Below, piece by piece: positions 2,803 through 47,563 of a stretch of DNA of 64,000 bases. A program made the translations under genes and the position numbers. Under the pieces are notes generated by a model that saw nothing but the letters and a program-made list of their open reading frames with translations, was not told the origin of the DNA and ran no database searches. Source of the DNA: Amphiscolops sp. MND2022 (Eukaryota); NCBI GenBank assembly GCA_964187785.1, contig OZ076409.1, forward strand, positions 12,030,001 through 12,094,000, given 5' to 3'. Numbering within the stretch: position 1 is the stretch's first letter; the number at the start of each line of letters is the position of its first letter.

Positions 2803-4037
2803 CATTCCTGCATTGATTGATTTTAAAAATTAAGAGTAAATCCTTCGAACATGCAAATGATTTTCAACGTGAACAACCATGTCTGTTGACGTTTAGGCTC
2901 AATCAAACCACGGGAACTGACACTTTTATGTTTATGAAAGAGAAAACGAAACAAAATAACGTTTGCTTGAAAACAAAGCAACATCGGGCATACCATAACA
3001 TACAAAACAAAATGGAATCTGAAAGGCTTTCGGTTTTTGAGTTCAAGCATCCTGTGTGCGGGAAAACAATTGTTATTTTCGTTTTTTAAGAACCGAAAAA
3101 CTTTAGAACTTGTGTCACTTCACTTCAATTCAAATACAGCTTGGCTTAGAGGTTAAAGCGGATTTCCTGGCCTGGTGATGAGGTCTGAGCGGCAGGGATG
3201 GGTCGGAGTCACGAACTGAACCAAATATTTTTATGCTTGCAAAGATAGAGGACCCCCCCTCCTTCCTTGGATTTTTCCAGCAAAAACCCCTTTGATTTTT
3301 AGCAAGAACAAAGCGTTTTGTGCGCATAGAGCCCCCTTAAGGTTTTTTGGCACTGTGCGAATTACGCGCGTTGCCGTAGAAGCTTTTTTGAAAACTCTTT
3401 TTCATACAATTTCTCATTTTTCTATTAAGGAAAACCGATTCACGAGTCTTGAGGGTGAAGTCTTTGGTTGAAGGTGGCCTCTCTGGTTTTGATGAGAGTT
3501 TGCTCGATAATTGTGAAGAAGGCCTTTTTCGGCTGTGTTTTTTACAATTTTTCTTTTGACTGGAGTTCCGCTGAATGTTTTCACGTTGGGAAATGTGTTT
3601 TTTGAGCCAAAGTGTCACACTTTTGGGTAGTTTTAGCTCCTTGTTACTTTTTTCCCACCAAATTTTTCGAAGAAAAAATCACAGTATCGAGTAAGTTACA
3701 TTTTCGGTTAAAAAGACATCTTTCCTTCATACTGAAAGGTCCTCCTTGAGTTCTGTTACAACACTCTACGGAAATTACCATAGTGCCACTGCGCATCTTG
3801 TTTCTTTTCCAGTCAGTTACTTATCAGTTTATGTGGAATTTAACCGAGTATGCATAAATCATCAGAGAAAAATCAGACATAAAAGGTTTTCATACTGATG
3901 TATCAAGCAAATGTTTAATTTAGTTGCTAAATGTTTTAACGCCTCAGTGAATGGAAGTTAGTTTGCATTCTGATCCTGGCACAATAACGGCCCAGTGGAG
4001 CATGGGAAACTTGATTATCTGTCGCTTCTAATCGAAA

Positions 4038-12248: not shown

Positions 12249-14527
12249 GTGAGTAATACCCCTTAAGCCCCCCTAGTAGTACATCCAAATACTATATTTC
12301 CAGTTTTAAGCACTTAAATACTCTTTGTGTTCTGGACGTTGCGGTGCAAAAATCAAAGTGAATTGTTTCAGACTTATCTCTTTAATTTGCCGGTACGGTA
12401 CTCAATGTATATTTAGATATGACGTCAGTAGTCCTAATGTCTTTTCGGTTTCAGAGAAGCCAAGAAACCAAAACTAACATGTGTTCCCCGTATAGTCTTA
12501 GGCACTACTATTCGACACCCTAATAATTTCCCTATATTAAGTCTAGTTATGACTCATCAGATATGTCGATATAACTTATACTGCTTTTAAATAGTAGAAT
12601 AGCAATTTTATTGTTTTGAATGTAGTTGCTGTAAAAATTCAACAAACTAGTGCTGTTTGAAATCAATGGGACTCTTCGTTTTTGACTAGGTTTATCAATC
12701 GATAACTACTTTAAGAAATTTTTCCAGAATTGTATTTTTTTTTCAAATTAAGTTTTCTTCATTCATTCGTGCAAACAATTATTTTTTCGTCCGCATGACT
12801 GCTCTGAAGTACAGTGTGTTCATCGGTATAGAGGGTGAGACGTTTTAGAAAATGTGCTCAGAGGAAAAACTGGTTAAGCATGGAAAAATTTCATTATATT
12901 ATGCTCATGAAGCAAAATTTGTGTCTATTTCTCCGAAGTTTTGCGATGAGATGTTTTCAAAATTTTGTTCCACGAGGAGAGTTTCATGAAAGTGCTTTTG
13001 TTTTGTGTTGCTGCACTAGGGCTTCCTTGCTGTGACCACTGAATTAGGTTTCACCAAAAACGCGCTTGTCGCTTCTCGCGCTCATGACTGGCCCGCTAAC
13101 GCTTAAGCGGCGCTTTTTGGAAGAAAACTTTGGCTGAGCGAATTTAAGTTTTCAAAAGCTACAATTTCTTTTGAAAGTTCGAAGTTTCCATTTCGAACTT
13201 TTGGAAATTTCGATGTGTTACTCTCTTTTCCCAACAAACTACCACCACAAGAGACAAATCTTCAACTGTACTGGCGTCGGGTGAAACGCCCGGTACAAAA
13301 AACTTGCCAGTGTAAGAGTTGGGCACTTTTTGTTACCAAAAAAGCTAAAATTTCCGACCAATCAGTAAGCGGAAATTTCAGTCGTCGCTTTCGCTGTCAG
13401 CGCCTATTCGGATATTACGTCGCTTTCGCTTCTTTTGCGCTTTCGCTTACAAGCGACCAAATTCACTGACTGTGACTACGTTTTAACATAACATTTTTAA
13501 CGTGCTCGTATAAAAGCACCATGTGAATAAATTGAAGAAGTTCGAAATTATTAATCAAAAACGTTTCCGGATTGTCTACTCTATCTGGCTCCAACTTTTT
13601 CCTTCTTGCTCTGGCTAGATTGACTGGCTGTCTGAGTTTGATTGATTGGATGATTGTGTCACACTGTCTGGAGAGCAGTCTGGCTGCCTTCGTTTGGCTC
13701 TTTCTTTTCAGCCTTCGTCCGGATCACTTTCTGTCACTTTCGCAAACTGGCAGGTGTTCCAGATATTCTGTCAACGTCCAATTCAGCACCTCGATTCTAA
13801 TGTCAAGCATCGCAATGGTTTTGAGGCATGACTCTCAACTTATCTCGAATCGTTTGTCAAACTGAAAAACTGCAAGACGTCATTTTAAAGCCAACTCTCG
13901 CTGTCATCTCTTGTTGATAGTGTTTAAAAGCGCTTCTACCATAAACATGGTCGCCTGTAATTATCATCAAGTATACAAACTGCTGTATTATATTGTACCT
14001 CAAGTTGTAGTAGTCGAGAAAACTGCAGACTCGAAGTTTTTCATGTGTGTGAATTAACTAACTCTGGTGTTGTTTTTCATTTTTATGACATGGTTTTGAT
14101 GAGCATGTGTTTCAAGTCACTAGACATCAAAGTTTTACTGTTCTTTATTCTGATATCAAAGTCTCACAGCCGAAAAAAATCAGTGAAGTTAGCATTTTTT
14201 GAGTTGAAGAATCTTTTATCTCAACAGAGATAGGCCAATTTCAAAGTCTAAAGAACGCCAATTTATAGTTTCAAAAAGCAGAATGGTAAAGAATCTGTTT
14301 CGAATTTCCTGCATGTTATACCCGAGTCTTGAGCATGTTAAAAGTTTTATTCTCTTCGCTGTCTTGAAAAATCAAAAGTTAAGGACATATCTGAAGTAAA
14401 AGTTTTTCAGCAGAATAGCAATTTTGAAATTAGTTGTTTAGCGATAAGCGAAAAAAAATTAGCGACGTCAAAACTTTGGTTTACAGCGACGTAAAATTTT
14501 TTGTAATTTTTCAAAAGTTCATATTAA

Positions 14528-15065
14528 CCTCGACAGTACACCGAGAAGTCAAACAATTGACAAAATTTTGGCAATTTTTTTTCAAAGCTTCATTTCTCCA
14601 CAAATAATAGCCGCAGCTCCAATCGGTTTTCTGTTCCTGAAAGCACTTTACCTGAGCTTTCAAATGCGCACTAATTAGGTAGCTGCGCCGGGCCTTTCAA
14701 ATATCGGCTGAACTCATAACTGAAGCTTCATTGAAAAAAAATTCTATATGCGTTTTCAATGGTGGCAAACTGTGTTACTAGAGTGGGACAGTAATTTAGC
14801 AAATAGTTGCTGTAATTGAGAAAAAAAAACGAATTTTCTGAAATGTACTTTTTTGCAATTTTTCACTTTTTTCAGTTACTTCTTTGCCAGTGGCTCGGAA
14901 AAAAATTTATATTGACACAAATAACAATTCACACCAGATAGTCCAATAGATTGTCGATAAGAAAAACAATTTTTCGTTTTCCTCTATGCTTTTTGCGTGT
15001 CGTAATTTATTATTGATTGCGAAAAAAATCGCTCTCCTCATTTGAGGACGAAATCACTGTCGAGG
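14528..15065. mobile_element. piggyBac-like MITE
   Basis: TTAA|CCTCGACAGT ... ACTGTCGAGG|TTAA: 10-bp perfect TIR with a TTAA target duplication; no ORF. Confidence 0.75.
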
Positions 15066-15107
15066 TTAAATTCAGAGCGTACTTGTTGAAAAGTTTTAAT
15101 AACCTCG

Positions 15108-18100
15108 TTTTTAGTCGGTGTTTTTCTTAAGAAAAAAGCCCGACTATTACAGTCACTCGTTTTTTTGAGGCTTCGAGCGAGCGAAGCGAAGCGACGAAGT
15201 CTCTATTGTTCCGCGTTTACTAGCGTTTTGGTTTTTTTTTCGCGTGACATACCCTCTGCATTTGTATTAATTGAAGGCTATTTTCTCAGAGCCTATTTTT
15301 CCGCGACCATCCAAACTTTCCAAAAAGAAACGCAACTTGATGCTCTTTCTAACCGTGTAAAAACTTTCCGAAAATTTTCCACCGGCGCGATTTTATTAGC
15401 TTCGAAAGCGCGAAATTTTCGAAAATTTTTAGGGTTTTTGTCGATTTTGCTATTTTTCTTTTCGCAAACCACAGCGAATTGGCCCGATGTAGGTACTAAC
15501 CGACGTAAAACGATGTTTTCTTTAATTTGGTGAAAGTTTTTTTATCCTAGAATTATTGGGCTTTGCGAAAATGACCATTAAAAATAGGAAAAATTTTCGG
15601 TTTTTTTGCGTAAAAAATTTCTCAACCTATTTTCAAGTAGCAATCAGTTCTAATCCAAGCAGTGGTGTTTCTACTCGATAACAGGTCTGCTTAGCTGCCC
15701 AAAGTTAGAAATTGGAAAGTCACAACGTTTACGTCGGACAGATAGAGACAAAAAAGTTTTCAAATTTTTTGAATTTTTGATAAATTGCTCTCTTTATTCA
15801 ATTTTGTAAAAGTTTTGGCCTATTTTCTCGGAGTCTAATACTTCGAGACCATCCAAAAAGTCAACAAATTGTTGGAACTGAATTTGTTGGTGAAGATTTA
15901 AATGTTGTTGGATTTTCGGGCAGTGAGAAAATAGCGATTCAATATCGAAAATTTTTTTGGATAATTTTTTTCGAAAATTTTGGAGCTTTCACTAATTTTG
16001 CTCATTTCTACATTACAAACAACGTCGACCCGGCATAAAATACGTCCTATCCGACTTCTTTCACATGTTTAAAGTTTCAATGTGCTACATTTTTGGTGGT
16101 TGAGCAAATGGCGATTGAAATTCTGAAAATTTACGTTTTTTCCCAATTTTTTCCAAGCTTTTTTCTGTTAATAGTTCTGTTCATTTTTGATTTTTTGGCC
16201 GTTTTCTCACAAGGGATTGCTTCAAGACGATTCGAAAAACAGCAATATTTTGTTCTTTAGCAGTTTTTCCAGAAATTTTTGGCCGGTGCGTATTTATAAC
16301 GAAATACGAAAACCGCAAATTTTTATTTTTTTTGCAGACTTTGCTCTTTTCCTGTAATCAAACCACTTGGAACCGCGGCAGTGTAGGAACTGACCGTCAT
16401 TCAGGACTATGATATTAGCCTGGATAAAAGAATTCATTGATACGCGAATTTGCCGTCGAAAAAACTGCGATTGAAAATTCTTCCGGAAATAGTTTATGAG
16501 CCGATTTTTACTAGTTATCGGTTCAATGGGATCTCATATCATTTCCGCTCAAACCATATAGTCCTAAGACTGTAGGCGAAAAGCTCGAAGCAATTAGATG
16601 CATGCGGAAAGTACTCGAATAGACGAGATAAATGCGCTGTAGAACGTCTTTCTACGCAAATTTGGGTTTTTTCTCAAACAATTAAACTTCATACATTAAA
16701 GGTCGTTCGTGGTGCGGGCCTTCTGATTCTTTTCGAGTAATACTCGGATCGCAATCAGTAAAACGAGAAAACCACCCACAGGTCGTTAAAGGTGCGGGCC
16801 TACTATTCTGTGAGGAATAGTGAAACGAGAAAACCGGTTTATGAGCACATTACGAGGTAACGTCCAAAATTAGCATTTGGTTCGACTGTTATTAGATTAT
16901 CTCTTATTCAAATGTTAAATCGGTTATTCAAATTCCTGTTTTTTCGTGGATTGATTAGTTATTGATGATGTGGTTTTTTGAAGCGTACAACCGCGAAATT
17001 TCCGTTCTTAACGTATTCTATCCAGTGAATATCTGCACAGAAGGTATTATGCATTACCGCAATATTCCTGAGAGATTTGATGTCATATGCAACGATTAAA
17101 TCAAGACAACACTAAGTTATATTCACACCTCGCTGTGCAATGATATTCAACCACGTTGTATTGAAAACAAAAATGATTTCGGATCTTTTCGTGATTTTGC
17201 CCCATTCGCAAATTTTAACGTTTCTGGAATACGTTTCCAACGGTGCCCACTGATGCTGGAAGGTTGTTTGATGCACAATTCAGCTAATTTTTAGAACTGA
17301 AAGTATACTTGCTAGTGATGGCACATATCAACCGTCCTATTGATAACTAGGGCAGCCCTTCCTTTTATATAGTGGTAAAGGCCGAAAAAGTTGAGCTTCA
17401 TAGGATTAATACCCGCAATTCTTTTCAATTTCATTGTATTTTGAGCATTCTCGTGCCGTATATAACCTTAGCTATTCGTCATAGCTAATAACTTGGTAAT
17501 ATGGTTCAAATGCACATGATGATAGTCAATTATGGCTGCGGGACCTGTCGCTCGAAGCCGTGCGCAAATTCCTTTGCGCCTATGTTTTTTTTTCGCGTGA
17601 CATACCCTCTGCATTTGTATTAATTGAAGGCTATTTTCTCAGAGCCTATTTTTCCGCGACCATCCAAACTTTCCAAAAAGAAACGCAACTTGATGCTCTT
17701 TCTAACCGTGTAAAAACTTTCCGAAAATTTTCCACCGGCGCGATTTTATTAGCTTCGAAAGCGCGAAATTTTCGAAAATTTTTAGGGTTTTTGTCGATTT
17801 TGCTATTTTTCTTTTCGCAAACCACAGCGAATTGGCCCGATGTAGGTACTAACCGACGTAAAACGATGTTTTCTTTAATTTGGTGAAAGTTTTTTTATCC
17901 TAGAATTATTGGGCTTTGCGAAAATGACCATTAAAAATAGGAAAAATTTTCGGTTTTTTTGCGTAAAAAATTTCTCAACCTATTTTCAAGTAGCAATCAG
18001 TTCTAATCCAAGCAGTGGTGTTTCTACTCGATAACAGGTCTGCTTAGCTGCCCAAAGTTAGAAATTGGAAAGTCACAACGTTTACGTCGGACAGATGGAG

Positions 18101-19833
18101 ACAAAAAAGTTTTCAAATTTTTTGAATTTTTGATAAATTGCTCTCTTTATTCAATTTTGTAAAAGTTTTGGCCTATTTTCTCGGAGCCTAATACTTCGAG
18201 ACCATCCAAAAACTCAACAAATTGTTGGAACTGAATTTGTTGGTGAAGATTTAAATGTTGTTGGATTTTCGGGCAGTTCATTGTATATTATACAAATTGT
18301 GCTTTACTACGAATCTTGAAATAAATGAATATTTGATCCTTCAATTTTTAAATATACATTTTCCAAACTAATCTTAGGAAGGAGTGAAATAGACGAAGTT
18401 ACCGGATCGGTCTTGTAAAAATGCATAGATTGCGGTATGATTACCCCTAGTAACCCTCCTACTGTCTTATTGCACGGCTGTTGTTAAAAATGCTGACTTC
18501 ATCCTTGGAAGGTTTTTATTTATTTATACTGCTAGTAGAAAATGTAAAAATGCTCGAAGACCTATCGGCAATGTACATTGAATCATATACTCCATAATTG
18601 CTCATTGATTTGCTTTGTCTCATGCCTGTAAAATTTTCGGTGAATAGTTTTTTTGTCCATTTTTGATGTCGGAAACCAAAGTTTTTTTCAGACCTCTCGA
18701 TGTATGGGTTTTCGAGAGTGAGATCATATTGGACCACTGGAGTACATACTCACCGTTAGTTATTGATGATGTGGTTGTTTGAAGCGTAAAACCGCGAAAT
18801 TTCCGTTCTTAACGTATTCTATCCAGTGAATATCTGCACAGAAGGTATTATGCATTACCGCAATATTCCTGAGAGATTTGATGTCATATGCAACGATTAA
18901 ATCAAGACAACACTAAGTTATATTCACACCTCGCTGTGCAATGATATTCAACTACGTTGTATTGAAAACAAAAATGATTTCGGATCTTTCCGTGATTTTG
19001 CCCCATTCGCAAATTTTAACAGGTTATTCATCCTCTGGAATACGTTTCCAACGGTGCCCACTGATGCTGGAAGGTTGTTTGATGCACAATTCAGCTAATT
19101 TTTAGAACTGAAAGTATACTTGCTAGTGATGGCACATATCAACCGTCCTATTGATAACTAGGGCAGCCCTTCCTTTTATATAGTGGTAAAGGCCGAAAAA
19201 GTTAAGCTTCATAGGATTAATACCCGCAATTCTTTTCAATTTCATTGTATTTTGAGCATTCTCGTGCCGTATATAACCTTAGCTATTCGTCATAGCTAAT
19301 AACTTGGTAATATGGTTCAAATGCACATGATGATAGTCAATTATGGCTGCGGGACCTGTCGCTCGAAGCCGTGCGCAAATTCCTTTGCGCCTATGTTTTT
19401 ATTTAAGACAGACTCGAAGCGACGAACGTTAAAATTAACGTTCAACTACTAAATAAGTACTAAACTACTGGACCGCTAAAGGCAAACGGGGAGCGCATTC
19501 ATTTACTTTTTAAACGTTACATACAAGCCCGGACGGGACTAAAGTTTTAACCCCCCCCCCCCCCCCTTTCGATTTTTTTTCGGCGCTGTGACACTTTTTT
19601 TCGAAATTTTTTTAATGTCCCCAAAGGGTACCCCCTTTGAGTTTTTTGTTATTTTGCTACAGAATGCGTGTTTATAAATCAAAAAGGGTCCCCCTTTTTA
19701 CATTTTTCGGCACTGTGCGACATTTTCCGAAAGAATTTTTTTTCGAAAATTTCAAGTTTTTTTTCCAAAAAAAAATGTTTTGCGCTTTTTGAGCCTTAGA
19801 TATAGCGCCGACTTGAGACGTTCCCGTCTTGTT
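15108..19833 (+). mobile_element. HINE family 1 copy interrupted by a 4.2-kb HINE family 2 composite
   Basis: 5' end TTTTTAGTCGGTG...GCCCGACT at 15108-15145. Body resumes at about 19396 and ends AGCGCCGACTTGAGACGTTCCCGTCTTGTT at 19833. Confidence 0.75.
15167..19395 (+). mobile_element. HINE family 2 composite: one 5' end, two bodies, two 3' ends
   Basis: SubTIR GGCTTCGAGCGA (15169-15180) versus TCGCTCGAAGCC (17548-17559 and 19359-19370), each 3' copy followed by the stem-loop GCGCAAA-TTCC-TTTGCGC. Near-identical blocks 15232-15924 = 17585-18277 and 16955-17584 = 18756-19395. Confidence 0.8.
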
Positions 19834-21487: not shown

Positions 21488-21890
21488 AACAAGACGGGAA
21501 CGTCTAAAATCGGCGCTATATCTAAGGCTCAAAAAGCGCAAAAGACTTTTTTTGAAAAAAAAACTTGAAATTTTTGAATTTTTTTCTTTCAGAAAATGTC
21601 GCATAGTGCCGAAAAATGTAAAAGGGGGAACCCTTTGGGCTTTATTAACATATATTCTGTTGCAAAATATCAAAAAACTCGAAAGGGGGGCTCTTTTGAG
21701 ACATTAAAAAATGAAAGGGGGGAAACTTTTGCACTAATTTCCGCTGACCGGACTTGGCTTTATGGTAGTAGTTTTAGTAGTTTCGATTGTAAGAAAAGTG
21801 GCTTAATCAGAGTGAGATTGTAGTCTGACGAAAAAAAACTAGCCACTGTAAGTGTCGGGCACTTTTCCCTAGAAAAGCGCCGACTAAAAA
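21488..21890 (-). mobile_element. HINE family 1 copy
   Basis: AACAAGACGGGAACGTCTAAAATCGGCGCT ... GAAAAGCGCCGACTAAAAA. Confidence 0.8.
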
Positions 21891-22044: not shown

Positions 22045-22476
22045 CAGTAGCTTTCTGAAATATCGCAATCTGATTGCTTAAAAGGGCAAAATTCAAAACC
22101 AAATATCTCGTAAACTGTGTCACGAATACAAAAATTTGCCAGCTACAAAAGTTTTTTTGAGAATTTTATCTAGTTTACAAAAATGTTTGTTTGAAATTTC
22201 CACGACCCATACTGAAAAAGTTGGAGAAAAGAAATTGTAAAAATTCGAATTTGAATTTGAGTTTTTTCCCGAAAATCAAGAAAAAGTGCAAGTTTGATGA
22301 ACTTTTGCAATTTTTGTCGCAGAAAATTCAAACGAATATTTTTTCAAACTACCAAAAATTCTCCGAAACTTTCCTAGCTGACAATTTTGTGTATTTGTGA
22401 CAGTTTTCACGATATTTGGATTTTAATTTTAAAGCAATTTTAAGCAATGGAGTTGCGATATTTTAGAACGCTACTC
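22045..22476. mobile_element. Tc1/mariner-like MITE with long imperfect TIRs
   Basis: TA|CAGTAGCTTTCTGAAATATCGCAA...TTGCGATATTTTAGAACGCTACT; inverted similarity extends about 100 bp. Confidence 0.5.
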
Positions 22477-24609
22477 CTTATGTTCGACCGAGATCACTGG
22501 ACGTTGAAAAATTGACACTCGGAAACGCCCGTCAAACGGAATCCGGAAAAGAAGAGTCGCCATCTTGATTTCCGCGTGTTTTTTTGCAGTTTTTGCCGGT
22601 GCTGACCTCAGAACTTTGTCTACCGACGTAATTGAATGAATAAAAACCACTCAAACCTGGATATCTCCCTAAAGGTCATTGAACTTGTCACTTACCATAA
22701 ATGGCATCTATGTTGCGTGCTTATTACGTAGTTTTATTCTTTTTTTATTACTCTATTTTCCTCAGATGCCACTCAAACGTGCAACCAACCTTTGCAGATA
22801 CCCGTTTTTTCTGACCCAATTTCCATCCTATAATTCATGTTTGATTGCTTTTTTCTCTCTTTTTGAAAAAATGGTTGTGAAACTGAACCAAGGCATGTAT
22901 ATTATGATTAAAGAAGCACCTCTATATTCATAACGTTGAGAGGTGGTCAAAGGGGTTTATATATTAATAATACTAGTTCAAGATTTCAAAGGTCTCAGTT
23001 CACAATTTGTCCTTTTTCGCTTTTGCAGACGTCAATCATGTCATTGCATTTGAAGCAGTAACGATTCATGAAACCTCTGTTGTTATGCGAACAAAAGAAA
23101 TATCAAACAAAGGGGTTGTTTCTTTGTTTACAGCCTTTTTTGCTCCAATGCCTCTTGTTGCATGACAGGCAGGGAGGGGGTTGGTTTGGGGGTGTAGAGA
23201 GAAGTGTCTTTTAAGCAGTAAGCAGCTCTTGCATTTAAATGTGACCTTTTAATTTTGCATATTTTCCATGTTGCATACATGCTCATTTGGTCCGCTTCTT
23301 TTTAAAACAGGTTTTTCACACAGTTTCAGGGAAGTACACATTGAATCAAAGGAGTTGGTGCCACGTGTGAAATCATTCGACGTGAAAAACCGAATCGCGC
23401 GAAATTGCCTTTCACTTTTTATATCCATCGTTATTTCGTTTTGAGATCTTAACAGTAGAAATCTATCAAATATTTTGAGTGTTTAAAAATTCCAATTGAT
23501 CATGGTCTAGTCCTTAGCAGTTCTTGAGAAAGAAAGTTGAAAAATTGAAGTTAGTACCTGGGCGCGGCTATATTGGATTCTAACCAAGTAAGAAGTACCA
23601 AAACCAAAAAATACTCTTTCCTTGCCGTTTTAGAAGCATTTTATTGCTCTTTTGGCAAGGAAAACGGAGTCGGTAGGCTGTAACTGTCGAAATTATATTT
23701 TGGCTGACAAATACCGGAAACAGTCGACTGCTACGAACTTCCGATTTTTAGCCGACGCTTTTCGAAGAAAAGACCCGATTATAGCAGTAGCTTTTCTCAA
23801 AACTGGTGAACTGACAGAATTTCATACGTTTCTATACGTTGTTGCTTAGTAACTTGTAACTTCTTGTCTGCAATTTCTACCACTTGGCAGAGAGGTTAAT
23901 CCGGATTTTTTGAGGTCTGAGAAGCAGAAGGACGTGGGTTCAAGTCTCGCACTTGACCAAAATTTTTAATGCTTGCAAAAAGAAAGGGTCCCTCCCACGG
24001 TTTTTTCCGGCACTATGCTACTTTTTCTGAAGGTTTCTCAACGGAAGAACCCCTTTTGATTTTTAGCAGAAACAAATTGTTTTGCGAGCAGAGACCTACC
24101 TCAGGTTTTTTCGGCTCTATCCGACTCATCAAAGCTATTTTTGCAGAAGTTTTATTGCTTAGGATCTCTGCTTAGGAAAACCGTTTCTCAAGTCTTGAGG
24201 GTGGGAACGCTGAGAGTTCTCTCAATACCTGTTGAAAAAAGCCCATTGTTTCTCCGGCACTGTACGACTTTTCTTCAAAAAAATGTTTTGACTCGTTTTG
24301 CGAATTTGAAAGGTTTCCTTTTGGGATTTTCCGCATTATGAGTTTTCCGGAAAGAAAATATTTTTCGACATTTTCCCAAAAATGGGGCTTCTGATGTTTT
24401 TCTGTACCGCAACATAAAAGAACGCAGATTTCTTTTTCCCCTCATTTCAAATTTTTCAGCAGTTTCAATTTTCGCGGAATGCATTGCCAAACTTTAAAAT
24501 ATGTTTTATTTAGGGTAACCAGTTAGAGTTTTCTAAATCTAAATTACCGGTTGAAGGTAAAGTTTAAATCATCGGTGGACTGCGATGATTCCCAACCTGA
24601 GGAAGTCTT

Positions 24610-26080: not shown

Positions 26081-26706
26081 TTTTTAGTCGGCGCTTCATG
26101 AAGTGAAACGCGACTATTATAGTGACTCTTTTTTTCAATACACACGAACTGACCAAAATAGTTCTTAAAAGTTCTACGAAATTTTATGGTGCCATATTGA
26201 ACCATTTGGCTTAGCGAACTGGAACTGAACCGAAAAGGTTTTTTTTTATGTTTTTCCGCGTAACATAAAGTACCAGGAGATTCTAAAGGGTCCCCCCTCT
26301 CAGATTTTTTCGGCATTGTGAGACTTTTTTTCGAAAAAAAAATTCCCAAAGGGTCCCCCCTTCAATTTTTTGATGTTCTGCAACAGAATGGATGTTGAAA
26401 AGTCTCAAAGGGTCCCCCTTTCAGTTTTTTCGGTATTGTGAGACTTGTTTTCGGGAAAAAATTTTATCATGAAATGGTCCTCTTCAATTTTTAGATGTTT
26501 TGCAATGATGGATGTTAAAATCCGAAAGGATCCCCCTTTTAGCGTCCGGGCCCCCGGCGGGCCAATTCGGCCAAACTTTATGGGTTTTTCCGGTACTGAA
26601 TACTAGTAAAGAATACTTATAAAGTAAGGAATACTTGACAGTTTGAAGTCCTTTTGCTATTTCTGAGCCTTAGATATGGCGACGAATTATGCCGTTCCCG
26701 GCTTTT
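26081..26706 (+). mobile_element. HINE family 1 copy
   Basis: TTTTTAGTCGGCGCTTCATGAAGTGAAACGCGACT 5' hairpin; internal AAAGGGTCCCCC repeats; 3' end GCCGTTCCCGGCTT. Confidence 0.75.
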
Positions 26707-29396
26707 TATTCTTTTCGTTCACCAGTTTCTGCTTATATAACTTCAAGTCATATGCCACTTTGCCTGGAGATTAACGCGGATTTCCAGGCCTAGTGATGAG
26801 GTGGGAGGAACAAGAGTACACGTGTTCGATTCCCGCTGTAAACCAATTTTTATGCTAGCAAAGTTGGAGGAAAGTCCAAAGGGTCCTTATTGGGTTTTTT
26901 CGGCACTATGCGACTTATTGTCTGAATTTTTCAAACCAAGCCCTCTTCGGTTTTAGGACCAACGCGTTTTGCAAGCATACAGGTCCCCTTAGGCACCATT
27001 TTTCGGCACTGTGCGACTTACCGAAGATATTTTTTCTACACATTTCTTAGTTTGTTTGAGGTTTTAGGTTAACGAAAACCGATTTCCGGTCTTGAGAGTG
27101 ACCTCTTTGGTTAAAGGTGAAGTCTTTGGGACTGATGAGAGTTGCCTCAAAAATAATAGTGATAAAGACTTCTTTCAGCTGTGTACAAGTTTTTAAAAAG
27201 TTATGTTCATTAGAGGTTCGCTGCTTCGGGTTTTTCGAGCCTAATGGCTAACACCCTTGGGTAATTTCGGCACTGTGCGACTTTTTTCGAACTCAAATTG
27301 TTCGCCAAAAACCCACTATATTATGTTTTTGTGATATATACAGTTAAGAAAAAGTCTTCTTTACCATGAAAGCTCCCCTTTTCTGCTGCAACAGTATACG
27401 AAAATCATCTCAGTGCCAGTGCGTTTCGTGTTTCAGTACATTTCAATTCTAATTTAAGCGTAGTTTGCCATAATTACTATTTCTGTTTGATTATTGATCC
27501 ATTTGTCAAGTCAGTGTGCACAATTTCTGTGGAAAGTGAAACGAATAAGTTATATCGAGAAGTCACTGGGACTTTCAATGCAAATGTGTTGAAGTTTCTG
27601 TGTCTAGTTTCATTTGTTGAATTTTCGTATGTTGAAATCTCTTGTGCTGAGTTTTCTGTTAATCATCTGACTTTCATCGTTCAAACTAGTGTTCGCTCCA
27701 CAAGTTTTATCTCCCACTTTGTATGCAATCTAAATTGATATCTTCAAAGTGACAGGGGACAATGGAATGACAAATTTGAACTTTTGGTCATTAGACATTT
27801 GCCCACATTCTTCGCTTAGGTAATTTTTAAAAATTTTTTCCAGCTTTTTCCACAGAAGTAATGATTAGCTCCCAAAATTCTGTATATCGTCTCAATTATC
27901 AATATGAATATATATATATTTTTTCATTATGCTATTTCATTCTCTCAAAGTATAGTTTGTACTACTGTCTTGTCAGGTTTGCTTCCAATGTGATTAAAAG
28001 TTTGTTTCATTAGTTGTTTTCTTTTAAAAAAGGATCGCTCAAGAAAATTTTAATGATAATTCTTCTATGCCCTGCCTTGATTCGTATGGACTACGGTACT
28101 GTTACCAGTGCGAAGATCATGTCGTTTACAATACATCGAAATTCAACTGATTGATTTTTTCGAAAATTTAGGTCCCAAATTCACTTTTATCTGCCCTGCG
28201 AAATCACTTTCTTCCTTTGAAAAAAATACTTTGCCAATCTCGAATGTAACCTCGAATCAAATTGTAAAACCTGATTTTTTTATGAGTTGAATTCATTTTT
28301 GTATGTTTTGGATGATGTTCGGTGAGCTAAAATTACTCATCTTAAACTGTGACGTCATCTTCGGTTACTGCGACCACTGCTGCGATGGCTTTTCTGAAAT
28401 CTGTGAATAATTCAGCCATTCGAGCCATCCATTTCCTGGCGATGGCGCGAAAAACACAATGAAGCAATATTTGGCACGCCTTGTGTGAATTTTGTTTTGG
28501 ACACGCGTGAAGAAAACAGTCTGAATAATAAATGGAGCAGAACGTTTGTTCATGCAACCGTGAATTTGCTTCCTTCCCTACTTACGCAAATGCAATGGTA
28601 CTCCACATGCTATATACCTGCCAACGAGGTTGCATAATTTTTTAATGTATGCTCAAAATGAATATCAGTTACAAAACGAGCCAAAATTTTAAATTACACT
28701 TGTATGTTTTTTCATGTTTCACGTGGAGCCTGGTTCGAAGTGGTGCACTCCAAAAAAACTACCCTAGTCGAGACTGCTTGTACTTTTTACATGCTGCATG
28801 GAAACATGCAGGCTGAATTTTTACAAAACATGAAAAATTCAGGCAGCATGCATGGAAAAATTTTGGAAAACTTCAAAGCACTTTGTAAAAAACTCAAAAA
28901 ATATATCATCAAAAAAGTTTCTAAGCCTAGTTTAACTAGATATTACGTATTATTTTTGTATGAACAGGCACAAAACAGCCATGAAGCAAAAAGTATAAAT
29001 TTATTAGTTCGAATCAGCTTCAATTGCCATTGCTAAAAAATGGATTAAAAAGAGTAATCGATCAAGTTTTACTACTTTCTTTGATCTTACCTCTTGAGAA
29101 CCTTTCGCATCGTCTGCTATCATAAATATCTTGTTTGAACAGCTTTCAAGGTATCACCGTTCCGAATTATCGTGTTTAAAACACTGCTCGAAAGTAGCAC
29201 TGAAATTTATCTTGATCGAAACTGTTTATTAAATTCGGATTTTATTCTTGTAACTGATTTTAAAATCTCGGATTTTATTCCACTGTAATTTTCATGCGTT
29301 TTGAAATTAAAATTCTGAGTTGAAATCTAATTGAATTCTGTTTTAAAACGATACCTTAATAAACCATAAATACTTTTGATTTCGCTTTTCGTTTTT

Positions 29397-30742: not shown

Positions 30743-31105
30743 AAAGCCGGGAACGGCACAAGTCGGCGCCCCACTTAAGGCTCAAAAACAGCAAAAGTAC
30801 TTCACAGCGTCAAGAATTCTCTTGTTAATACTCTCTCAAAAAATCACAGGGGGACCATTTGGGAAAATTAGAAAAAAATAAGAAAAAAGTCTCACAGTGC
30901 CGAAAATAACCCTCAAATCAATTTCATTCAAATAACGTTCTGAAAATTTGAAAGAGAGAACCCTTCCGACCAATTTGCTATTTCGTAGAAATTTCGGAAA
31001 ATTTTGGCATTCGGCATGAAAATTCGACCGGATTAAAAAAAGAGAAAGCACGACGAAAAGCTACTATTATAGTCGCGCTTTATCTTATGAAGCGCAGACT
31101 AAAAA
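30743..31105 (-). mobile_element. HINE family 1 copy (diverged)
   Basis: AAGCCGGGAACGGCACAAGTCGGCGCC ... ATAGTCGCGCTT..GAAGCGCAGACTAAAAA. Confidence 0.65.
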
Positions 31106-32692
31106 TGTGGAACTTAATTTACAATTCAGACTGGCCTTGGTTCTATTCAAAATTTCATGCTTCCTTTTGTTCCATGTTTCTTTTGAAGTCGGATGGTGCT
31201 TTTGGATTTTCGAGGGGTATATCTCTTCTACAAATGTCTTGCTTTTAAAAAATCCAAGTTTTTGGTTGTTTTGGATACATAAGAGCGGTGTCTCAACTAC
31301 AGGAAACATTTCATGAATAAAAAAGGGAGTCTACGTTTTTTTAAGTAGCACACGCATACGATAATGAAGTTCACATTTTTGTAGATATAGGTTTTCTATC
31401 AATAATCTATAAAATGCGCAGGTGCGGGAAGTTCATGAATCATATGTGAGTTCATGTCGTTTTCGACAAAGTGAGCAAATTTCTGCTATGATGTTATTCC
31501 ATCGACTTTCGATGCTCATCCCAAATTTATTCCATCGTCTTTCTCCACACACGTTGATTAGGCTGTCAGTTTGAACAGGGATCAAAAAATACTTGAAGCT
31601 GTAATGTATCAGCAATCACAGTAGATGATATTAATGTTCAGATTCGCCGATGACTTGAAACAATGGCAATGAGTCGCAAATCTATGAACTTGAAAAATCT
31701 TTCCAGTAATAGTTGAAAATGAAAATAGTTGAAAGCGGGTTTTTGTGTCGTCAATTTTTTTCAAATATAATTTTACAAATATTACCCTTTATAAGGTGAT
31801 AAAGAAGCGTTATATGACTGTACTGTATGTAAAAATGTATATAATATGACGCTCTTTCTCATACGTTAGAATTCGCGAAGTCGGTAAATTTCTGCAATAG
31901 TCACTTGAAAAATACCTTTCAGAGAAGTTTTTGCCTAAAGAAAGTTTTGCGTAAATTTTAACTAACCTTGTTTGTCAGCGTTTTTCATTTTTGAAACTCT
32001 GAGCATCATATCGTACGTTGGATAAGTGAGCACTCTAAATGTTTCAAAACAGCATTCAGTTCATTAATATGTCAAAGTGTAGATTTAGAAGAGCAAGTAG
32101 TTCCTAGAGATAGCATTGCATACAACAAAAATTGTGCACTAACCCGAAAAACATCAATGTAGCTGAAAATATGTAACAATTTCCTGTTAATGTTCCCCGA
32201 ATTTTAATTTCAGAATTGTTGCCGAGTTTAACATATTGAATAATTCAAACTTTCTCGCTATTTTTGGTAGGCGCATTTAAAAAATGAGCGCGACTGTTCT
32301 GTGGAATTTTTTTTCTTTTTTTTGTCAGATAACAGAATGTATGACTAGTGGACACTTTTTACAGAAACTACTACACTACTGAACCGGCCAGCGGAAACGC
32401 ATCTAAGTTAGGGCAAAAGCCTCCTCTTTCATTTATTCCATTTTTAACGTAAGATACAAAACCGGACGAGACTAAAGGGTCCCCCTTTTGATTTTTTCGG
32501 CACTGTGAGACTTTTTTTCGAAAGTTTTTATACTTGATATATTATGAGGATTATGAGGTATTAAAAAATCTGATTATGAAACCAGATTTTTCCAGATTGA
32601 GAATGAAAACCCAGACACTTTTTAGAACCAAATTTCAACAAAGTATGAAAAGCCAGGTCACTTTGAAACGCTATATTTATTTATCGTTTCAG

Positions 32693-35185: not shown

Positions 35186-36571
35186 CACCATTTGCAATTC
35201 AAGTGAGTGAAAAAGCGCATTCAAGTGAGAACATGTCGTAAATGACATTCAAGTGAGAAATCGAACATTCAAGTGAGAGAAAACGAAAATTCAAGTGAGA
35301 GTGTTCATCCCTTGTTCAAAGCCTCTCCGAAAGTTTTCATTCTGATTAACTACTCGTCCAAATCATGCCATTCAGAGTCCCAGTTTTTGCCAAAGAATTA
35401 TCGCTGCATTTTTGAGCGGAGATGAACATTTTCGCGAAGTTGCCAATAGTAGCACGCCCCGACCAAGCTGTCCAGAGCCACAGGGGCAAGCGTTATCAAA
35501 AATTTGATGATGAAATGAAAGAAAAAGCAGTCGATATACTCAGCGAAAACCCCTCATCTTACTCAAATGTATGAACAAACAACTGAGTCAGGAGCTCCCA
35601 GAAAAACCTCAAGTACATATAAAAACATTAGCAAATGCCCTGGACGGACTTGCATATATCCTCAAGCTACCGCGTGACGTACCTGCAGACAGAAACAGGG
35701 CCTATGTCATCAACGAGAGATATGAATATGCGAGGTGGCTAACTAGTCCAAACGTGGTCAACACCTGCAAAATGTACGTTGACGAATGCGGAATGAACAT
35801 TCACACAAAGAGGAACCAAGCAGGCAGTATTAGGGGAACTAGGACATACCGCACCGTATCAGGATAGAAGGGACACAGCGTGGCAGTATGTTTGGGCATC
35901 GCCGCAGAATATGGGATTGTGTATTATGAGATATACAGAGGGGGCATGAGCATGTCCAGATACCAACAATTCGTTGGCTTATGTTGTGGAAATCTGATAG
36001 CGGATATTGTGTCAGGATACCTCATTTTCGATAACGCACCAGCCCATCGTGGCATTAAATTCCTGAATATGGACCAAATTAGCTTCAGACGTTTGCCAAA
36101 GTACAGTCCATTTTTGAACCCTGGAAATGTCGTTTCATGCTGGAAAAGTGAGTTCAAGAGTCAGCTCTCATCAAGGCTAAACGAGTTCATTCAGATAGCA
36201 CCTAATGGAGGAACGCTGGCCGATCAGAGATTCAATTTGCTTTCAGAAATATTAGAATCTATCAAACACGTGATAACTCCTGAATAATGCAGAACATGGG
36301 AACAGTTCGTATTCTCATACCTATTTTCTTGCCTGGCAAAAGAAAAAATCGACGGCTGAAACATTCTTTCGAAACTTTACATGTTAATTTATATATACTT
36401 TCATTTAAATTACTCTTTATTCGTTAATTTATGAACACTCTCACTTGAATTTCCGTTTTCTCTCACTTGAATGCTCGATTTCTCACTTGAATGTCACGGC
36501 ATGTTCTCACCTGAATGTGCTTTTACACTCACTTGAATGTGCCTTTTCTCTCACTCGAATTGCAAATGGTG
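35186..36571 (+). mobile_element. Tc1/mariner-IS630 superfamily DNA transposon (defective)
   Basis: TA|CACCATTTGCAATT ... AATTGCAAATGGTG|TA; long TIRs built from ATTCAAGTGAG repeats; internal DDE transposase remnant. Confidence 0.9.
35571..36359 (+). pseudogene. DDE (Tc1/IS630-type) transposase pseudogene
   Basis: Motifs YVDECGMN (first D), IFDNAPAH (second D) and LPKYSPFLNP. The catalytic E is lost and there are in-frame stops ending at 35867 and 36287. Confidence 0.85.
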
Positions 36572-37667
36572 TAGTCGGGCATTTTTCTTTAGAAGGAAAA
36601 CGTGCCTACTAAAAACCGATTCAAAATTGTTTTTTATGATTCGGCCTTCCTCCTTCCAGGCCGCTTCGCGACCCCTTCAAGAATCATTTCAGTTCGTGTT
36701 TCGGTGAGAATTGCCAATTTTCCAACAGTTTTTAAGGGTTAGGGATGCCAGGTTCCCTGTTTTCTATTTTGAAGATTCGATAAAAAGATGAGGTATCTGT
36801 AAAGCCTTCAATTTGGTACCAACTGACTTCTATGCAAAAATAAATACCAACGATTCTCTATCACACTAATGTACATATTGTAATAATGTAAATAAATATG
36901 AACCAACATATATAGAATCGTTATTGCACATTAGGAAATCAGATTGATTGACAGTTTGACAGTCTATGAACCGAATATTTCGGTATTGGTATTACACCGT
37001 ATAACATTCCCTTCCGCCTGGGCATGCTTTCTTCTGCTTTGTCGATGAACACGTCATCGGGCTTTGTTCTCTCTCGATATCCGCTGGTTTCAGTAGGTTT
37101 CCTGCTATTCCGATGAATCCTGAAACAATATTTTAAAACCCATATTCATGTCCAAAAATTTTATTGTCTATGGTTTACTCGTATCTACTCCGTTGTCTAC
37201 TTTCCCGATTTGACCTTCTTGTGAAAATATTTTCGGTTATTAGTTTTTTCATTTTTATTCTCACCGGTATGCATTTCACCATCGGTATATAGCTTCATTT
37301 CGTCCTCAGGATTGGTTGTTATCGGTTTACATCCCTTTCTTTCACACGTGTCAGGGTTTTCTATTTCGGAGTCACTCTCATCGTGGTCACCGATCTCTCG
37401 TTCCTCGCTCTCCGATCCGGGAGCTGATTTTCTTGTCGGGATTTGGATTGATTTCAATTTTCCATTCAGGATATCACTCAAAATCTGATTCCACTGAATG
37501 TTTTTCACGTCTACTCAGCGTAAGCAGTGTCCGTTTTTCGGTGTTATCTTGTCACCAATTAGGGGGCTCGTTCTTTCTTCTTTTCGTTCTGAAATACAAT
37601 TGGTCCCGAAATATGTTTTCGATGAATCGGGTTTCAATTTCGGTGGTTACCGTATGTTCCGTTCCGC

Positions 37668-40600
37668 TTATTGCGAATTGTAATTTCGTTTGAAATTTTC
37701 CTTCAAGTGATTTCTTATGGTTTTTTCAACAAATTTAAAGGGATACTCACTAACGGATTTCTTTCTTGGTAACCTTTCTGCCGCTTTTTCTTCGGTCTTG
37801 GTTTTCGCCATTACCAAATAATTGGAAACGTCTTCGTCTCTGGTACCGTATATCAGAGTCTTCGGTTTCTTTTCTGCTGAAACAGATAATTCGGACCAAT
37901 CAGATAGATATGATTTTCCGTCTTTAATGAGATTGGTCATTTCGGTTTCTGGCTTCCCGCCGTGGTGAAGCTCAAATGGTGTTAATTTCAATTCCGTGTG
38001 TGTTGTAAAGCGAATTATTTTTAACGCTCTATTATTGCATTCGGTCAAGCATAAATTATCTTCCAAATATGATTAAGTTCTTTATTGTTTGTATTGCGGG
38101 TTCAAATGCTTCCCTACCTGTATGTATTTTGGGTGTGCAGTATTCATTCTCAGTGTTTTTTGATCTGCGAAATTCGGTGTATATTCCAGAAAAGAATGCT
38201 CCACCTTTATCCGATTTCACCTTTTTTGGAATTCCGTAAAGATTAAAAATTTGCGTTATAAAGTTTTTGACTTTTTTCCACAGCTTTTACAAATTTTTAC
38301 TGTCGGCCATTTGCTGAATCTAACGACTGCTACTAATTTTTCAATTTCCCCGCTCAGATTTTTGTTGTGTAGTTTACCGGAGAAATCAATTTGGATTTCT
38401 TGTCGCGATTCGCTTAGTGTTTTTATTCGGCGCTTCATGAAGTGAAACGCGACTATAATAGTGACTCTTTTTTATTCTATCCACAGGAACTGACCAAAAT
38501 AGTTCTTAAAAGTTCTACAAAATATTATGGTGTCAAATTGCACCATTTCGCCTAGGGAACTGGACCAAAATGGTTTTGCCTGTTTTTCCGCGTAACATAC
38601 CATACCGGGCGAGACCAAAGAGTCCCCCCTTTCAATTTTTTTCGGCACTGCGAGACATTTTTCTTCGAAATTTTTTTTCGGAATTTTTTTCCTCAAGGGG
38701 TCCCCCTCTATTTTTTGATGTTTTGCGACAGAATGGATGTTGGAAAACCCCAAAGGGTTCCTCCTTTCAGTTTTTTTCGGCATTGTGAGATTTTTTCCGA
38801 AAATAAAAATATTCCCCCCTTCAATTTTTTCATGTTTTGCGACAGAATGGATGTTGAAAAACCTCAAAGGGTCCCCCTTTCAGTTTTTCGGCATTGTGAG
38901 ACTTTAGCGCGCCAGGGGCGCCACTCGGTCCATTTTTTTGTATGTAATTTTTTCAAAAAAAAAATTCGAAAAAGTTTCGACTTTCGGGTACTGTAAAATA
39001 ATACTTGACACTTGGAAGTCTTTCTGCTATTTTTGAGCCTTGGATATGGCGCCGACTTGGGCCGGTCCCGGCTTGTTAGTTTTCCACTTTTGTTTTTCGG
39101 TGTTTGATATTTTAAATTCTTACCGGATGCGAGGCGGGCCACGCATTTGTTCACTTTTTGTCGATTTCTTGTGTGATGTTGGGCCACCAGAGAAACTTAG
39201 CTACCCCCACTTCATTGACAGGTCGTTGAATCGTTGCTTGTAACCTTCGGGTGCCATATCGCGGTCGTTTCGTGTTAATGCTAGTTTTACTCTGTTCAGG
39301 TTGGCATTGGTAGATGATTTTGCTATCATTGTTTTCAAGTCTAGCATCATACATTCCATCTAGGTTTCTTGATTGTGCTTTCCGCGGCTTTCTTTCCTTC
39401 GATTTCTGCTCCGACTATTTGAGTAATTTGTACGTAATGTGCCTCTTTCCTGTCCGTGTTGTAGCTTCGTAAATCAACATTCGGTAAATTATCGCCTCTG
39501 ATAATTTGACTTTCCCCCTTGGTTTCGGGATCTTCTATTTGTTCTTCGGGCTCCGGTTCTGTCCGATTGTGTTGGTTGCTATCGGTTGGTAGCCTCCGCC
39601 CAGTCTGTGTGCCCGGTTGATTAACTCTCCGTCCATCTCTGCGATTTTTTTGTTTTTTTTTGGACTAGACGGGACCCAAATTGTTCTCTGCGCATTCTGG
39701 TCATATCTCTTTTTCACTGTCCCGGGTCTCGCGATTTCTAACCTTCTTTCCACCAACCGAAATGTTTCCGAACTCTTTCTTCTATTTCGAATAATTTCCA
39801 TGATTTCGGCAGATGCGCCTCAATGGAAATAATTTCGGTCCATTTTGTTTTGATGATGCGGTAATGGTATTTCTTGTGTTTGATACTGTTCACGTTTGGA
39901 ATTTTTTGAGTTGTTAATCGGACTGGTTTCTGTTTGTTCTCTTAGTTTGTTCACGCTTCGGTTTTTCCCGGTTGCTCCGTCGTTTTCTGATTGGTTAAAT
40001 AATTTGTTCTCGTGTGTCTTTACTTTGTTCTGTTTGTTTCTGATTCGCTTGCAAAGATGCTGCCGTATTTCAAATTCAATTCGGCTTGTTTTTCGAGAAT
40101 ATTTATCACGTTTTGTTCATCGTATACGTTTTCGGTCATAGCGCCCTCTAACGGATTTCTGCTGAGAAAATTGGTGAATTTCCGGTTGCTTCCGGCAATA
40201 TGTTATATAGTAAAATCGAAGTGTGCTATCCGGCTAAGCCATCTACTTAATCTTGCGCTGTATTGTTTGTTGCATCTATTTCGTTTAATTAGCAGTTCAA
40301 GACTTTGATTATTGGTATATAAATATACCTTCTCTCCGTATAAATAAAATTGGAATTTTTAAAATCCCCAAACAACTGCTTGTAATTCTAGTTCTCAGAT
40401 TGAATAGTTTTTTTCGTTGTCGTTCAGAAATCTACTTAAGAACGCCAATGGTTTTATTTCGCCGTCCGATTGCTTTTGCCACAATGTTATCCCGAGGCCG
40501 GTTTTGCTTGCATCAGTGGCTACCATGTTGTCTTTGTCTTTTGCACAGTGTGCTAATCCCGGCACTTCGTTAAGCAGGTTCTTCATAGCTGTGAAGTCTC

Positions 40601-44171: not shown

Positions 44172-44386
44172 GGATCTTTTCTGTTAATTCACCCCCCCAC
44201 CAATTTAATTCCCCCCCAGTTAAGCGGTCAAGTGAAATTACCACTGAATTAATAGTAACAACCAATCAAAATGCAGTATTTTATAACTCTAACTGCAACT
44301 GAAACTCATCGCTGATAGTGGTGGGGAATTAAAATTTATGCGCTTACTGTGGGGGGGGGGGGGGGGGGAATTAACAGAAAAGATCC
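44172..44386. mobile_element. Merlin-like (or other 8-bp-TSD) MITE
   Basis: 19-bp perfect TIR GGATCTTTTCTGTTAATTC; exact 8-bp TSD CCATGAAA at 44164-44171 and 44387-44394. Confidence 0.85.
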
Positions 44387-45552: not shown

Positions 45553-45622
45553 AATCAACAAATGTTTAATTGTTAAATTCTATATTCAAAAAAGAAGTGA
45601 AACGCGACTATTATAGTGACTC

Positions 45623-47328: not shown

Positions 47329-47563
47329 CGTCAGCTAATGTAATGATGTGCTCGAATGTGAATAATCAAAAGCAAAATTTCCACAGATTTCGATCAATCC
47401 AAATCGGCGAGGGTGTAAGTTATTGGAATGAAGTTTCGATTCTTATTGAAGTGAAAGTGTATGGTCTAATCCAATCTTTTTGCAGAGAAATTCGCGAAAT
47501 GTTTGATTTTAGGAGCGGTGTTAGAGTTCCGGAAATGAATGACTGAAATCTGGTAAAGGTAGC

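Follow-up and report, generated by a model that had tools for sequence, protein, structure and literature searches.

HINE-like repeats nested in one another behind the 5' hairpin in Amphiscolops sp. MND2022

The DINE-1/HINE elements are defined, in the accessible text of Thomas et al. 2014 (PMC4067079), by subterminal inverted repeats (subTIRs) of 12-15 bp, a 5' inverted repeat at the 5' subTIR and a 3' stem-loop; in mite HINEs the 3' subTIR lies 38-60 nt from the 3' end. The same text mentions clustering and end bypass and does not mention a fixed insertion site behind the 5' hairpin. T-rich targets, a 3.4% nesting rate (for all repeats of a fly region) and tandem transposable elements are reported in PMC7492417, PMC3630058 and PMC5932611, and the accessible portions of these papers do not describe a post-hairpin site. 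For the Fusarium Helitron2 elements (FoHeli; Chellapan et al. 2016, PMC5148889), multiple 5' termini are reported, self-insertion near the 5' end is proposed, and the 3' subTIR is placed "~20-40 bp" from the end. In FoHeli3.3, four 5' termini are stacked, and each breaks off in the T-run that follows the first 23 nt (supplement file 1 of that paper); in its available parts the T-tract is not named as a hot spot and no enrichment test appears. The Xenopus HLE2 element HelenXT233 (HELIANO, PMC11417382) has a pair of directly repeated left terminal sequences.

We analysed a window of 64,000 nt in which two repeat families, here F1 and F2, occur; the parts of the nests described below are on the plus strand. 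An F1 element (15108-19833) is split by an F2 insert that sits in the T-tract just behind the F1 5' hairpin, and five junctions in the window lie at such a post-hairpin tract. Both families resemble DINE-1/HINE elements (PMC4067079, as far as its accessible text goes) in their subTIRs, the inverted repeat by the 5' subTIR (clear in F1), the 3' stem-loop, the T-rich target, the variable terminal T's, the lack of target site duplication (TSD), the internal repeats and the lack of coding capacity. As in the published portions on FoHeli (PMC5148889), one copy may land in the first 27-85 nt of a second, composites with two consecutive heads occur, and the T-run stacking recalls FoHeli3.3. The Fusarium products, however, combine many heads with one 3' end, whereas the main products described here have two or three bodies and tails behind a single head, and the complete cross-family nest is also unlike what is reported from Fusarium. 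HelenXT233 resembles these stacks in that a single element carries two heads and each head marks a subfamily, but it is autonomous and is described in the accessible text of PMC11417382 without mechanism or junction analysis. The pairing of 5' and 3' ends from different copies is shared with end bypass in bat Helitrons (PMC4224331, accessible part); those are canonical Helitron1 elements that captured host DNA between copies, whereas the DNA captured here is the body of the nested-into element. We found no precedent in the open-licence literature for the reciprocal stacks of one head with many tails or for a cross-family nest. Post-hairpin nesting at this locus is a clear new case of known behaviour, with a similar habit in fungi and some new details; the F1 and F2 elements themselves are ordinary HINE-like repeats.

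The F1 host begins with a head (15108-15159; 39.9 bits in nhmmer, against a maximum of 9.1 bits in the reversed window) made of a T5 (15108-15112), a hairpin (15112-15146) that contains the 5' subTIR (15113-15122), and a 13-nt spacer. As DNA the hairpin folds at -8.1 kcal/mol with a z-score of -2.96, and all five F1 heads that were folded range from -2.96 to -5.31. The left part of the post-head tract follows as T7 (15160-15166), the site entered by the F2 composite, and its right part resumes beyond the insert as T5 (19396-19400); simple, uninterrupted F1 copies have T6-T8 at this position. The initial annotation had the F1 body and 3' end resume after the insert, and most of this stands: the conserved body landmark CAGACT appears at about 19408, and the body and 3' end (19445-19833; 67.1 bits) include a subTIR (19804-19813) and a 5-bp stem-loop (19816-19829). 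The exception is 19414-19444, for which the other F1 bodies offer no alignment; F1 homology is clear again from about 19445-19498. The body start (19401-19444) also holds a 12-mer (19415-19426; chance about 1e-3) shared letter for letter with the F2 head, and an 8-bp hairpin, oddities that are possibly a repair scar. The F1 subTIR is 10 bp long, with 8 of 10 positions matching in the host copy, slightly under the published 12-15 bp. Altogether 15 F1 heads score above 12 bits in the window.

The insert itself (15167-19395; 4,229 bp) starts 13 nt behind the F1 hairpin and splits the F1 tract as originally proposed, with somewhat refined coordinates. Its head (15167-15231) comprises a 9-bp stem including one G.T pair (15167-15203), the 5' subTIR, an AGCGA microsatellite and a 28-nt spacer, and is followed by the F2 post-head T9 tract (15232-15240). 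The 12-bp subTIR noted earlier is present and perfect (15169-15180 and 19359-19370; the chance expectation close to the ends is about 2e-4), as is the 3' stem-loop noted with it, with a perfect 7-bp stem at 19373-19390 and another in an additional subTIR and stem-loop at 17548-17584 (background 0.005 per position). Of the 5' palindrome that had been noted, the stem exists but its folding does not rise above dinucleotide shuffles (z -0.29; equal folding in 70 of 200), because it encloses the AGCGA microsatellite. The flanks consist of T's only, T7 on the left and T5 on the right, and T5 is the sole match between them.

These features fit the reading of a HINE/DINE-1 architecture. F2 has a 12-bp subTIR and F1 one of 10 bp; the 5' inverted repeat overlaps the 5' subTIR in the F1 heads, and the 9-bp stem at z -0.29 is a possible F2 counterpart; downstream of the 3' subTIR, a short stem-loop precedes the 3' end in both (7 bp in F2, 5 bp in F1). 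Insertion into T-rich sites without TSD could be judged against paralogous F1 copies, which serve as empty sites, and both families are non-coding, interspersed and multi-copy. The 3' subTIR is closer to the end than in the mite HINEs of PMC4067079, at 20 nt in F1 and 25 nt in F2, which falls within the FoHeli range; this distance is a lineage-level detail and not a core HINE feature. No remnant of a RepHel, endonuclease or other coding sequence was detected in F2 (12 frames, no Pfam match below E 0.07), and among the 57 ORFs of at least 100 aa in the window, 53 were scanned and none matched a Helitron, PIF1 or endonuclease family, the other four being three frames antisense to HSP70 and the duplicate ORF of the second F2 body. 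Judged from sequence, the assignment of F1 and F2 to HINE/DINE-1-like (HLE2) non-autonomous elements is supported, at a level that covers Helentron and Helitron2 alike. A canonical Helitron (HLE1; 5'-TC, 3'-CTRR, insertion between A and T) was rejected, as F2 begins with GA, finishes with CTATG and is flanked by T on both sides. The features set in advance as contrary to a HINE (true terminal inverted repeats, a TSD, or a retroposon tail with 5' truncation) were looked for in F2 and none was seen. This bears on the proposal that F2 is a minus-strand retroposon or a MITE in an AT-rich site, for which the left-end T7, read as A7 on the minus strand, would be the poly-A tail. Its true ends are not complementary and no TSD is present beyond T5; ARAGORN found no tRNA in F2, and Rfam has no match in 15108-19833. 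Relatives in public sequencing runs are internally deleted with ends kept rather than truncated, and a subTIR and a 3' stem-loop are present. The TIR-transposon, MITE and SINE/LINE assignments were set aside, and this alternative is largely refuted.

With its additional internal subTIR and stem-loop, the F2 insert has two 3' ends. Behind the single head, the first unit consists of segment A (15241-15924), interior X (15925-16954), which carries on the degenerate internal repeats of A, and segment B with the first 3' end (16955-17584; subTIR 17548-17559, stem-loop 17562-17579). A T9 (17585-17593) then joins this end to a headless second unit of A' (17594-18277), interior Y (18278-18755) and B' with the second 3' end (18756-19395). 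The match to a headless body at this junction scores 182 against a null maximum of 33. The two bodies are joined at F2's own post-head T9, and the insert is therefore itself a nest. A and A' differ by 3 substitutions in 694 columns, B and B' by 5 substitutions and 10 gap columns. Identity of about 99% in the same orientation would suit a rolling-circle concatemer, tandem duplication in place or faulty assembly; the middles, though, are unrelated (X against Y scores 18, shuffles 20) and unit 2 lacks a head, which points to two family members and not one duplication. In addition, most reads at 15834 carry the A' letter in each of the four public runs, and in another stack of the window (at 52022) the third body comes from a different subfamily, leaving such an origin very improbable. 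Continuity of A with X is indicated by a cross-junction score of 28 (shuffle maximum 18), and Y was probably contiguous with B' in its parent element, with modest support from a score of 27 (shuffle maximum 13); the last 60 nt of Y alone are not significant.

Two further nests were found in the window. At 45593-45982, a 5'-truncated F1b head, identical in 34 of 34 positions to 26100-26133, is followed by T5 and a complete F1a element (junction 45594/45623), with no F1b body after it. At 52022-53066, one F1a head is followed by three bodies, whose 3' ends lie at 52366, 52669 and 53066 and of which the third is an F1b body; each is joined at the post-head T-tract position, with scores of 126 and 142 against a null maximum of 29. 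This head is closest to the one at 21890 (score 72), but the bodies of the two elements match at a score of only 34, which is near noise. The element at 4563 combines an a-type head with a b-type tail. A separate insertion at 26081 inside an older F1-related element is an ambiguous possible sixth nest, which may sit about 35 nt beyond the tract; it was left out of the nest count.

The five post-head junctions occur among 22 units of both families, a small, hand-counted set, and correspond to P = 5e-6, 2e-4 or 0.012 when the pool of T-runs is restricted to at least T4, T5 or T6. The flagged locus was chosen for being nested; without it, P is 0.012-0.085 (T5 pool) and 0.12-0.35 (T6 pool), the upper values being those counted by locus (0.085 and 0.35). 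Junctions stacked within a single locus, moreover, do not count as independent events. In all five junctions the host's first run of at least T5 was used (within-host P 1.4e-5, or 0.0025 once the flagged locus is left out). Among the 15 3' ends tested, 3 lead into a headless body with a strong match, the F2-to-F1 junction scores at the edge of the null, and 2 of 13 heads have another head before them.

It could be that HINEs hit long T-runs at random, that the post-head T6-T9 are among the longest, and that insertions into repeats are harmless and persist. The T-rich preference is established (PMC4067079, in its accessible text), and the weaker enrichment in the T6 pool agrees with this. Nevertheless, all 13 heads have T4-T7 upstream, and un-nested heads have only T4-T6, probably including T's of the element itself, so long runs are not required. 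Bodies contain 4-15 other same-strand runs of at least T5 (26 in F2 unit 1), equally safe, and these were used in none of the five clear cases. We regard random insertion as unlikely. The same distribution, with the first run used in all five junctions, speaks against an origin of the stacks by deletion between neighbouring same-strand copies through T-run microhomology. In that case, without any targeted insertion, the T's of a tail would be fused to the post-head tract of a copy further downstream, or a post-head tract to the 5' T-run of such a copy. Copies are indeed dense, a T-run is present at every junction, and the head-head-body (45594) and head-body-body (52022) arrangements would arise without added steps. 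Deletion cannot, however, produce the full F2-in-F1 nest with both F1 flanks surviving, and recombination between bodies of 86-91% identity would be expected to give single chimeras; this origin too is improbable.

Our preferred reading, to which we give a probability of roughly 0.7, is that F1 and F2 are non-autonomous HLE2 elements mobilised by a Rep/Helicase in trans, with the post-head T-tract as preferred target and the nest history given here. The enzyme would join either family into T-runs without target duplication, preferentially into the tract 13-28 nt behind a resident 5' hairpin. First, an F2 deletion derivative (head-A-X-B-tail) would have entered the T9 of another copy (head-A'-Y-B'-tail). 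One head would then have been lost, either because the stack moved again from the inner head and read through its first stem-loop as far as the second one (end bypass), or because the two 65-bp tandem heads collapsed; it is this composite that would occupy the F1 T-tract. The preference might arise if hairpin extrusion, or a head-engaged transposase, leaves the adjacent tract single-stranded as a target; no mechanism of HLE2 target choice was found shown in the open-licence literature. The subTIRs of F1 and F2 differ, so the single cross-family nest (n = 1) favours recognition of structure over sequence.

A broader and distinctly tentative idea is that the post-hairpin T-tract could be a family-independent landing pad for HLE2 transposases recognising structure, with stacks resolved from any head to any tail, so that heads and bodies would be recombined at one constant seam. 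Such a rule would cover the multiple 5' termini of Fusarium, the two left ends of HelenXT233 and the higher diversity of left ends, as well as the head/body mosaics seen here (52022, 4563). Post-head self-insertion would itself explain end shuffling in HINEs and the growth of short elements into multi-kb composites. With its fixed position 45-65 nt behind the 5' end, the proposed self-insertion site offers a countable genomic test and a simple biochemical substrate. In annotation, tools that pair ends will split or mis-join such stacks.

Public sequencing data were compared with the stretch 13600-17600. Four runs (X1-X4) were retrieved with shares of 0.05-0.07; all cover the repeats and none the unique flank, so the runs could stem from relatives of the source or have been filtered. 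Three metagenome-contig matches to a 21-nt F1 tail pattern were dismissed as chance (GC 63-65%, only 21-28 bp matching, no head), and the pattern gave zero loci in genome and viral contigs. In X1, a contig runs from an F2 head through spacer and T-run into an F2 head (joint 15194 to 15162, depth 2.3), and in X3 and X4, which look like one data set, an F1 head and T-run lead into an F1 head (joint 15165 to 15129, depth 2.82); there is one such junction per family, each in single contigs at a depth below 5. With these two and the three further junctions in the window, the suggestion that the T-tract behind a HINE 5' hairpin is an insertion hot spot is therefore supported at the scale of the window and these contigs. 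Among the joints listed for the runs, none leads from a tail to segment A, and X2 has F1 tail-to-head junctions in three contigs, so that T-runs preceding a head are likewise used. Other listed joints, from 15673-15778 to about 17550, represent short F2 derivatives that retain the 3' end. F2 occupies one locus in the window, and its A segment and 3' end reach summed depths of hundreds to thousands in X1, X3 and X4.

The nested arrangement reported in the initial annotation, a copy of transposon family F2 lying in the T-tract of a copy of family F1 (15108-19833), was found in all its parts. The head of the F1 host, meaning its 5' terminus up to and including this T-tract, consists of T5, a hairpin (15112-15146, z -2.96), 13 nt and T7 (15160-15166). 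The F2 insert occupies 15167-19395 (4,229 bp) with T5 directly after it; its flanks have nothing in common beyond T5, and its true ends are not inverted repeats. The subterminal inverted repeat (subTIR) of 12 bp (15169-15180/19359-19370; chance ~2e-4) and the 7-bp 3' stem-loop are both present and perfect, whereas the claimed 5' palindrome survives as a 9-bp stem no stronger than shuffled sequences (z -0.29). Judged by structure, both families qualify as HINE/DINE-1-type non-autonomous elements of the Helentron/Helitron2 type (HLE2), an assignment at the HLE2 level that agrees with the original one, and they would resemble them in working. It is established in the literature that HINEs depend on HLE2 Rep/Helicase proteins for their movement, target T-rich sites and create no TSD (PMC4067079; PMC11417382).

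The F1 body and 3' end resume behind the insert, where 19608-19833 shares 85% identity with the copy at 21488-21711. Alignments of 19396-19545 with other F1 bodies exceed 200 shuffles in five of seven cases, one of them barely. Over its first 45 nt beyond the insert, the sequence retains the CAGACT landmark but includes a foreign 31-nt piece. Here, 15 nt from the insert, a 12-mer of F2 head sequence with an 8-bp hairpin replaces part of the F1 body (19415-19444; chance ~1e-3). A scar of templated repair is one possible origin; another, given 8 nt that also match the F2 3' subTIR, is the tail remnant of an F2-related element. The F1 body also carries a C16 run (19551-19566; C5-C7 in other copies), either a homopolymer expansion or a sequencing error.

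The insert is composite, in the order head, T9, A, X, B, tail, T9, A', Y, B', tail. A and A' differ in 3 of 694 columns, and B and B' by five substitutions and ten gap columns, while X (1,030 bp) shows no relationship to Y (478 bp), their score of 18 lying below the shuffle maximum of 20. A degenerate internal repeat of A extends into X, and that of B extends back into Y with modest support. From this combination we infer that the two units probably arose from one longer, young parent by different internal deletions. The second unit starts exactly at the post-head T9, the remainder expected if the first had inserted into the T9 of the second and one head had been lost. A search of 12 frames of F2 revealed no coding remnant. 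Within X, a 78-bp tandem was noted at 16710-16787.

Four public sequencing runs (X1-X4) were examined as contigs only. The unique flank of the locus has zero coverage. For the A segment and last 100 bp of F2, the summed depth is tens to ~100 in X2 and ranges from hundreds to thousands in each of X1, X3 and X4. Given these depths and the joints from 15673, 15769 and 15778 to ~17550, F2 is an abundant family of internal-deletion derivatives. Behind 17592-17593 the loose ends of contigs disagree (agreement 0.51-0.58), as expected for a true 3' end. In X1, an F2 head variant and spacer lead through a T-run into a second F2 head (one low-depth contig, 2.3). In X3 and X4, which probably represent a single data set, the T-tract of an F1 head leads into a second F1 head (one low-depth contig, 2.82). 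Ordinary tandem insertion also occurs, as shown by junctions of F1 tails to F1 heads in X2. Contigs of all four runs match X at 16548-16654 and diverge at 16654 into letters resembling, by eye, an F1-type 3' end; part of X thus seems common to another HINE family.

All counts refer to the 64 kb window or to these runs. Profiles of the F1 ends detected 15 heads scoring over 12 bits and 12 tails scoring over 14 bits, against maxima of 9.1 and 5.6 in the reversed window. Two further nests were found. At 45593, a truncated head of subfamily b leads through T5 into a complete a-type element, without a b body. At 52022-53066, one head precedes three bodies, each beginning at the T-tract position and the last belonging to subfamily b (junction scores 126 and 142; null maximum 29). 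By hand we counted 22 units, at 2288, 3070, 4563, ~12000, 13341, 15108 (with the two F2 units), 21890, 23745, 26081, 26740, 31105, 32262, 36615, 38420, 45593, 45623, 52022, 52367, 52670 and 58375. The nest count leaves out the ambiguous case of the F1b copy at 26081-26708, directly upstream of the 26740 copy, which may be nested behind a decayed head.

Repeated use of one tract is observed, with five junctions in the post-head tract among 22 units in 64 kb. Against T-runs on both strands (1,875, 851 and 337 of at least 4, 5 and 6 nt), P for all five junctions equals 5e-6, 2e-4 and 0.012, respectively, and 0.002, 0.018 and 0.17 when counted by locus. Excluding the F2-in-F1 locus, P at T≥5 is 0.012 for three junctions or 0.085 for two loci. 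Within hosts, the first of 5-15 same-strand runs of T≥5 was used in five of five cases (1.4e-5, or 0.0025 without that locus). These statistics, from a small post-hoc sample, are suggestive; we consider the hot spot proposed initially likely (probability roughly 0.7).

In the proposed course of events, an element would insert behind the head of a resident one, after which one head would be lost, with about even odds for read-through re-mobilisation and for collapse of tandem heads. Collapse would be allowed by the nearly identical first 15 nt of a- and b-type heads. End bypass is an established source of composites (PMC4224331). More tentatively, exposure of the T-tract might be due to the hairpin or to transposase sitting on it. 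A TA-targeting Tc1/IS630-like element (35186-36571, minus strand, 1,386 bp) lies at the foot of the 5' hairpin of the F1 copy 36615-34829, with a TA duplication, terminal inverted bases matching at 25 of 27 and a broken transposase (35514-36287; DDE_3, E 2.7e-4). It is a weak hint, because 5 of the 21 TA sites of that copy fall within its first 60 nt.

The hot spot was already in part anticipated in print. FoHelis are reported to repeat their first 31-85 nt, for which the proposed explanation is self-insertion and then a transposition that starts at the outer head and stops at the first tail (Chellapan et al. 2016, PMC5148889), and FoHeli3.3 has four stacked termini, each with a T-run at its end (PMC5148889 supplement); a Xenopus HLE2 with two left ends is described in the HELIANO report (PMC11417382). 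Apart from the truncation of its outer head, the 45593 nest fits the FoHeli model. One-head/many-tails stacks, a cross-family nest and an enrichment test were not found in searches of open-licence literature.

Post-head T-tracts are broken by short non-T inserts in five of ten other copies (58404-58420, 31020-31060 on the minus strand, 52073-52090, 45678-45687 and 32306-32324), which may have been left by nests that collapsed or by simple slippage; the insert in the 58375 tract includes GTCGG, as at the head start. Two copies are mosaic: 4563-4038 (minus strand) combines an a-type head with a b-type tail, and 52022-52366 has a head near-identical to that at 21890 with an unrelated body. An older F1-related subfamily (23745-24400, 26740-27434 and 3070-3804; 65-76% alike) shows, by eye, tRNA-like A/B boxes ~130-210 nt behind the head, a stretch with no ARAGORN or Rfam match.

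The window (GC ~37%) has eukaryotic gene content: HSP70 (48574-50334, plus strand) and HSP20 (46732-47334, minus strand) in divergent orientation, a kinase exon, a CUE domain and retrotransposon protease debris. A decayed LTR-retrotransposon-like region (~36760-43100, minus strand) has a direct repeat (36762-37001/42863-43107, 91%) and an aspartyl protease fragment (41636-41998). Long self-inverted segments mark Foldback- or MITE-like elements at 45017-45548, 22046-22475 and 55198-56617; the repeats measure 17 bp at 45061-45180 and 29-31 bp at 55262-56528. A G18 run at 44351-44368 represents a homopolymer expansion or a sequencing error.
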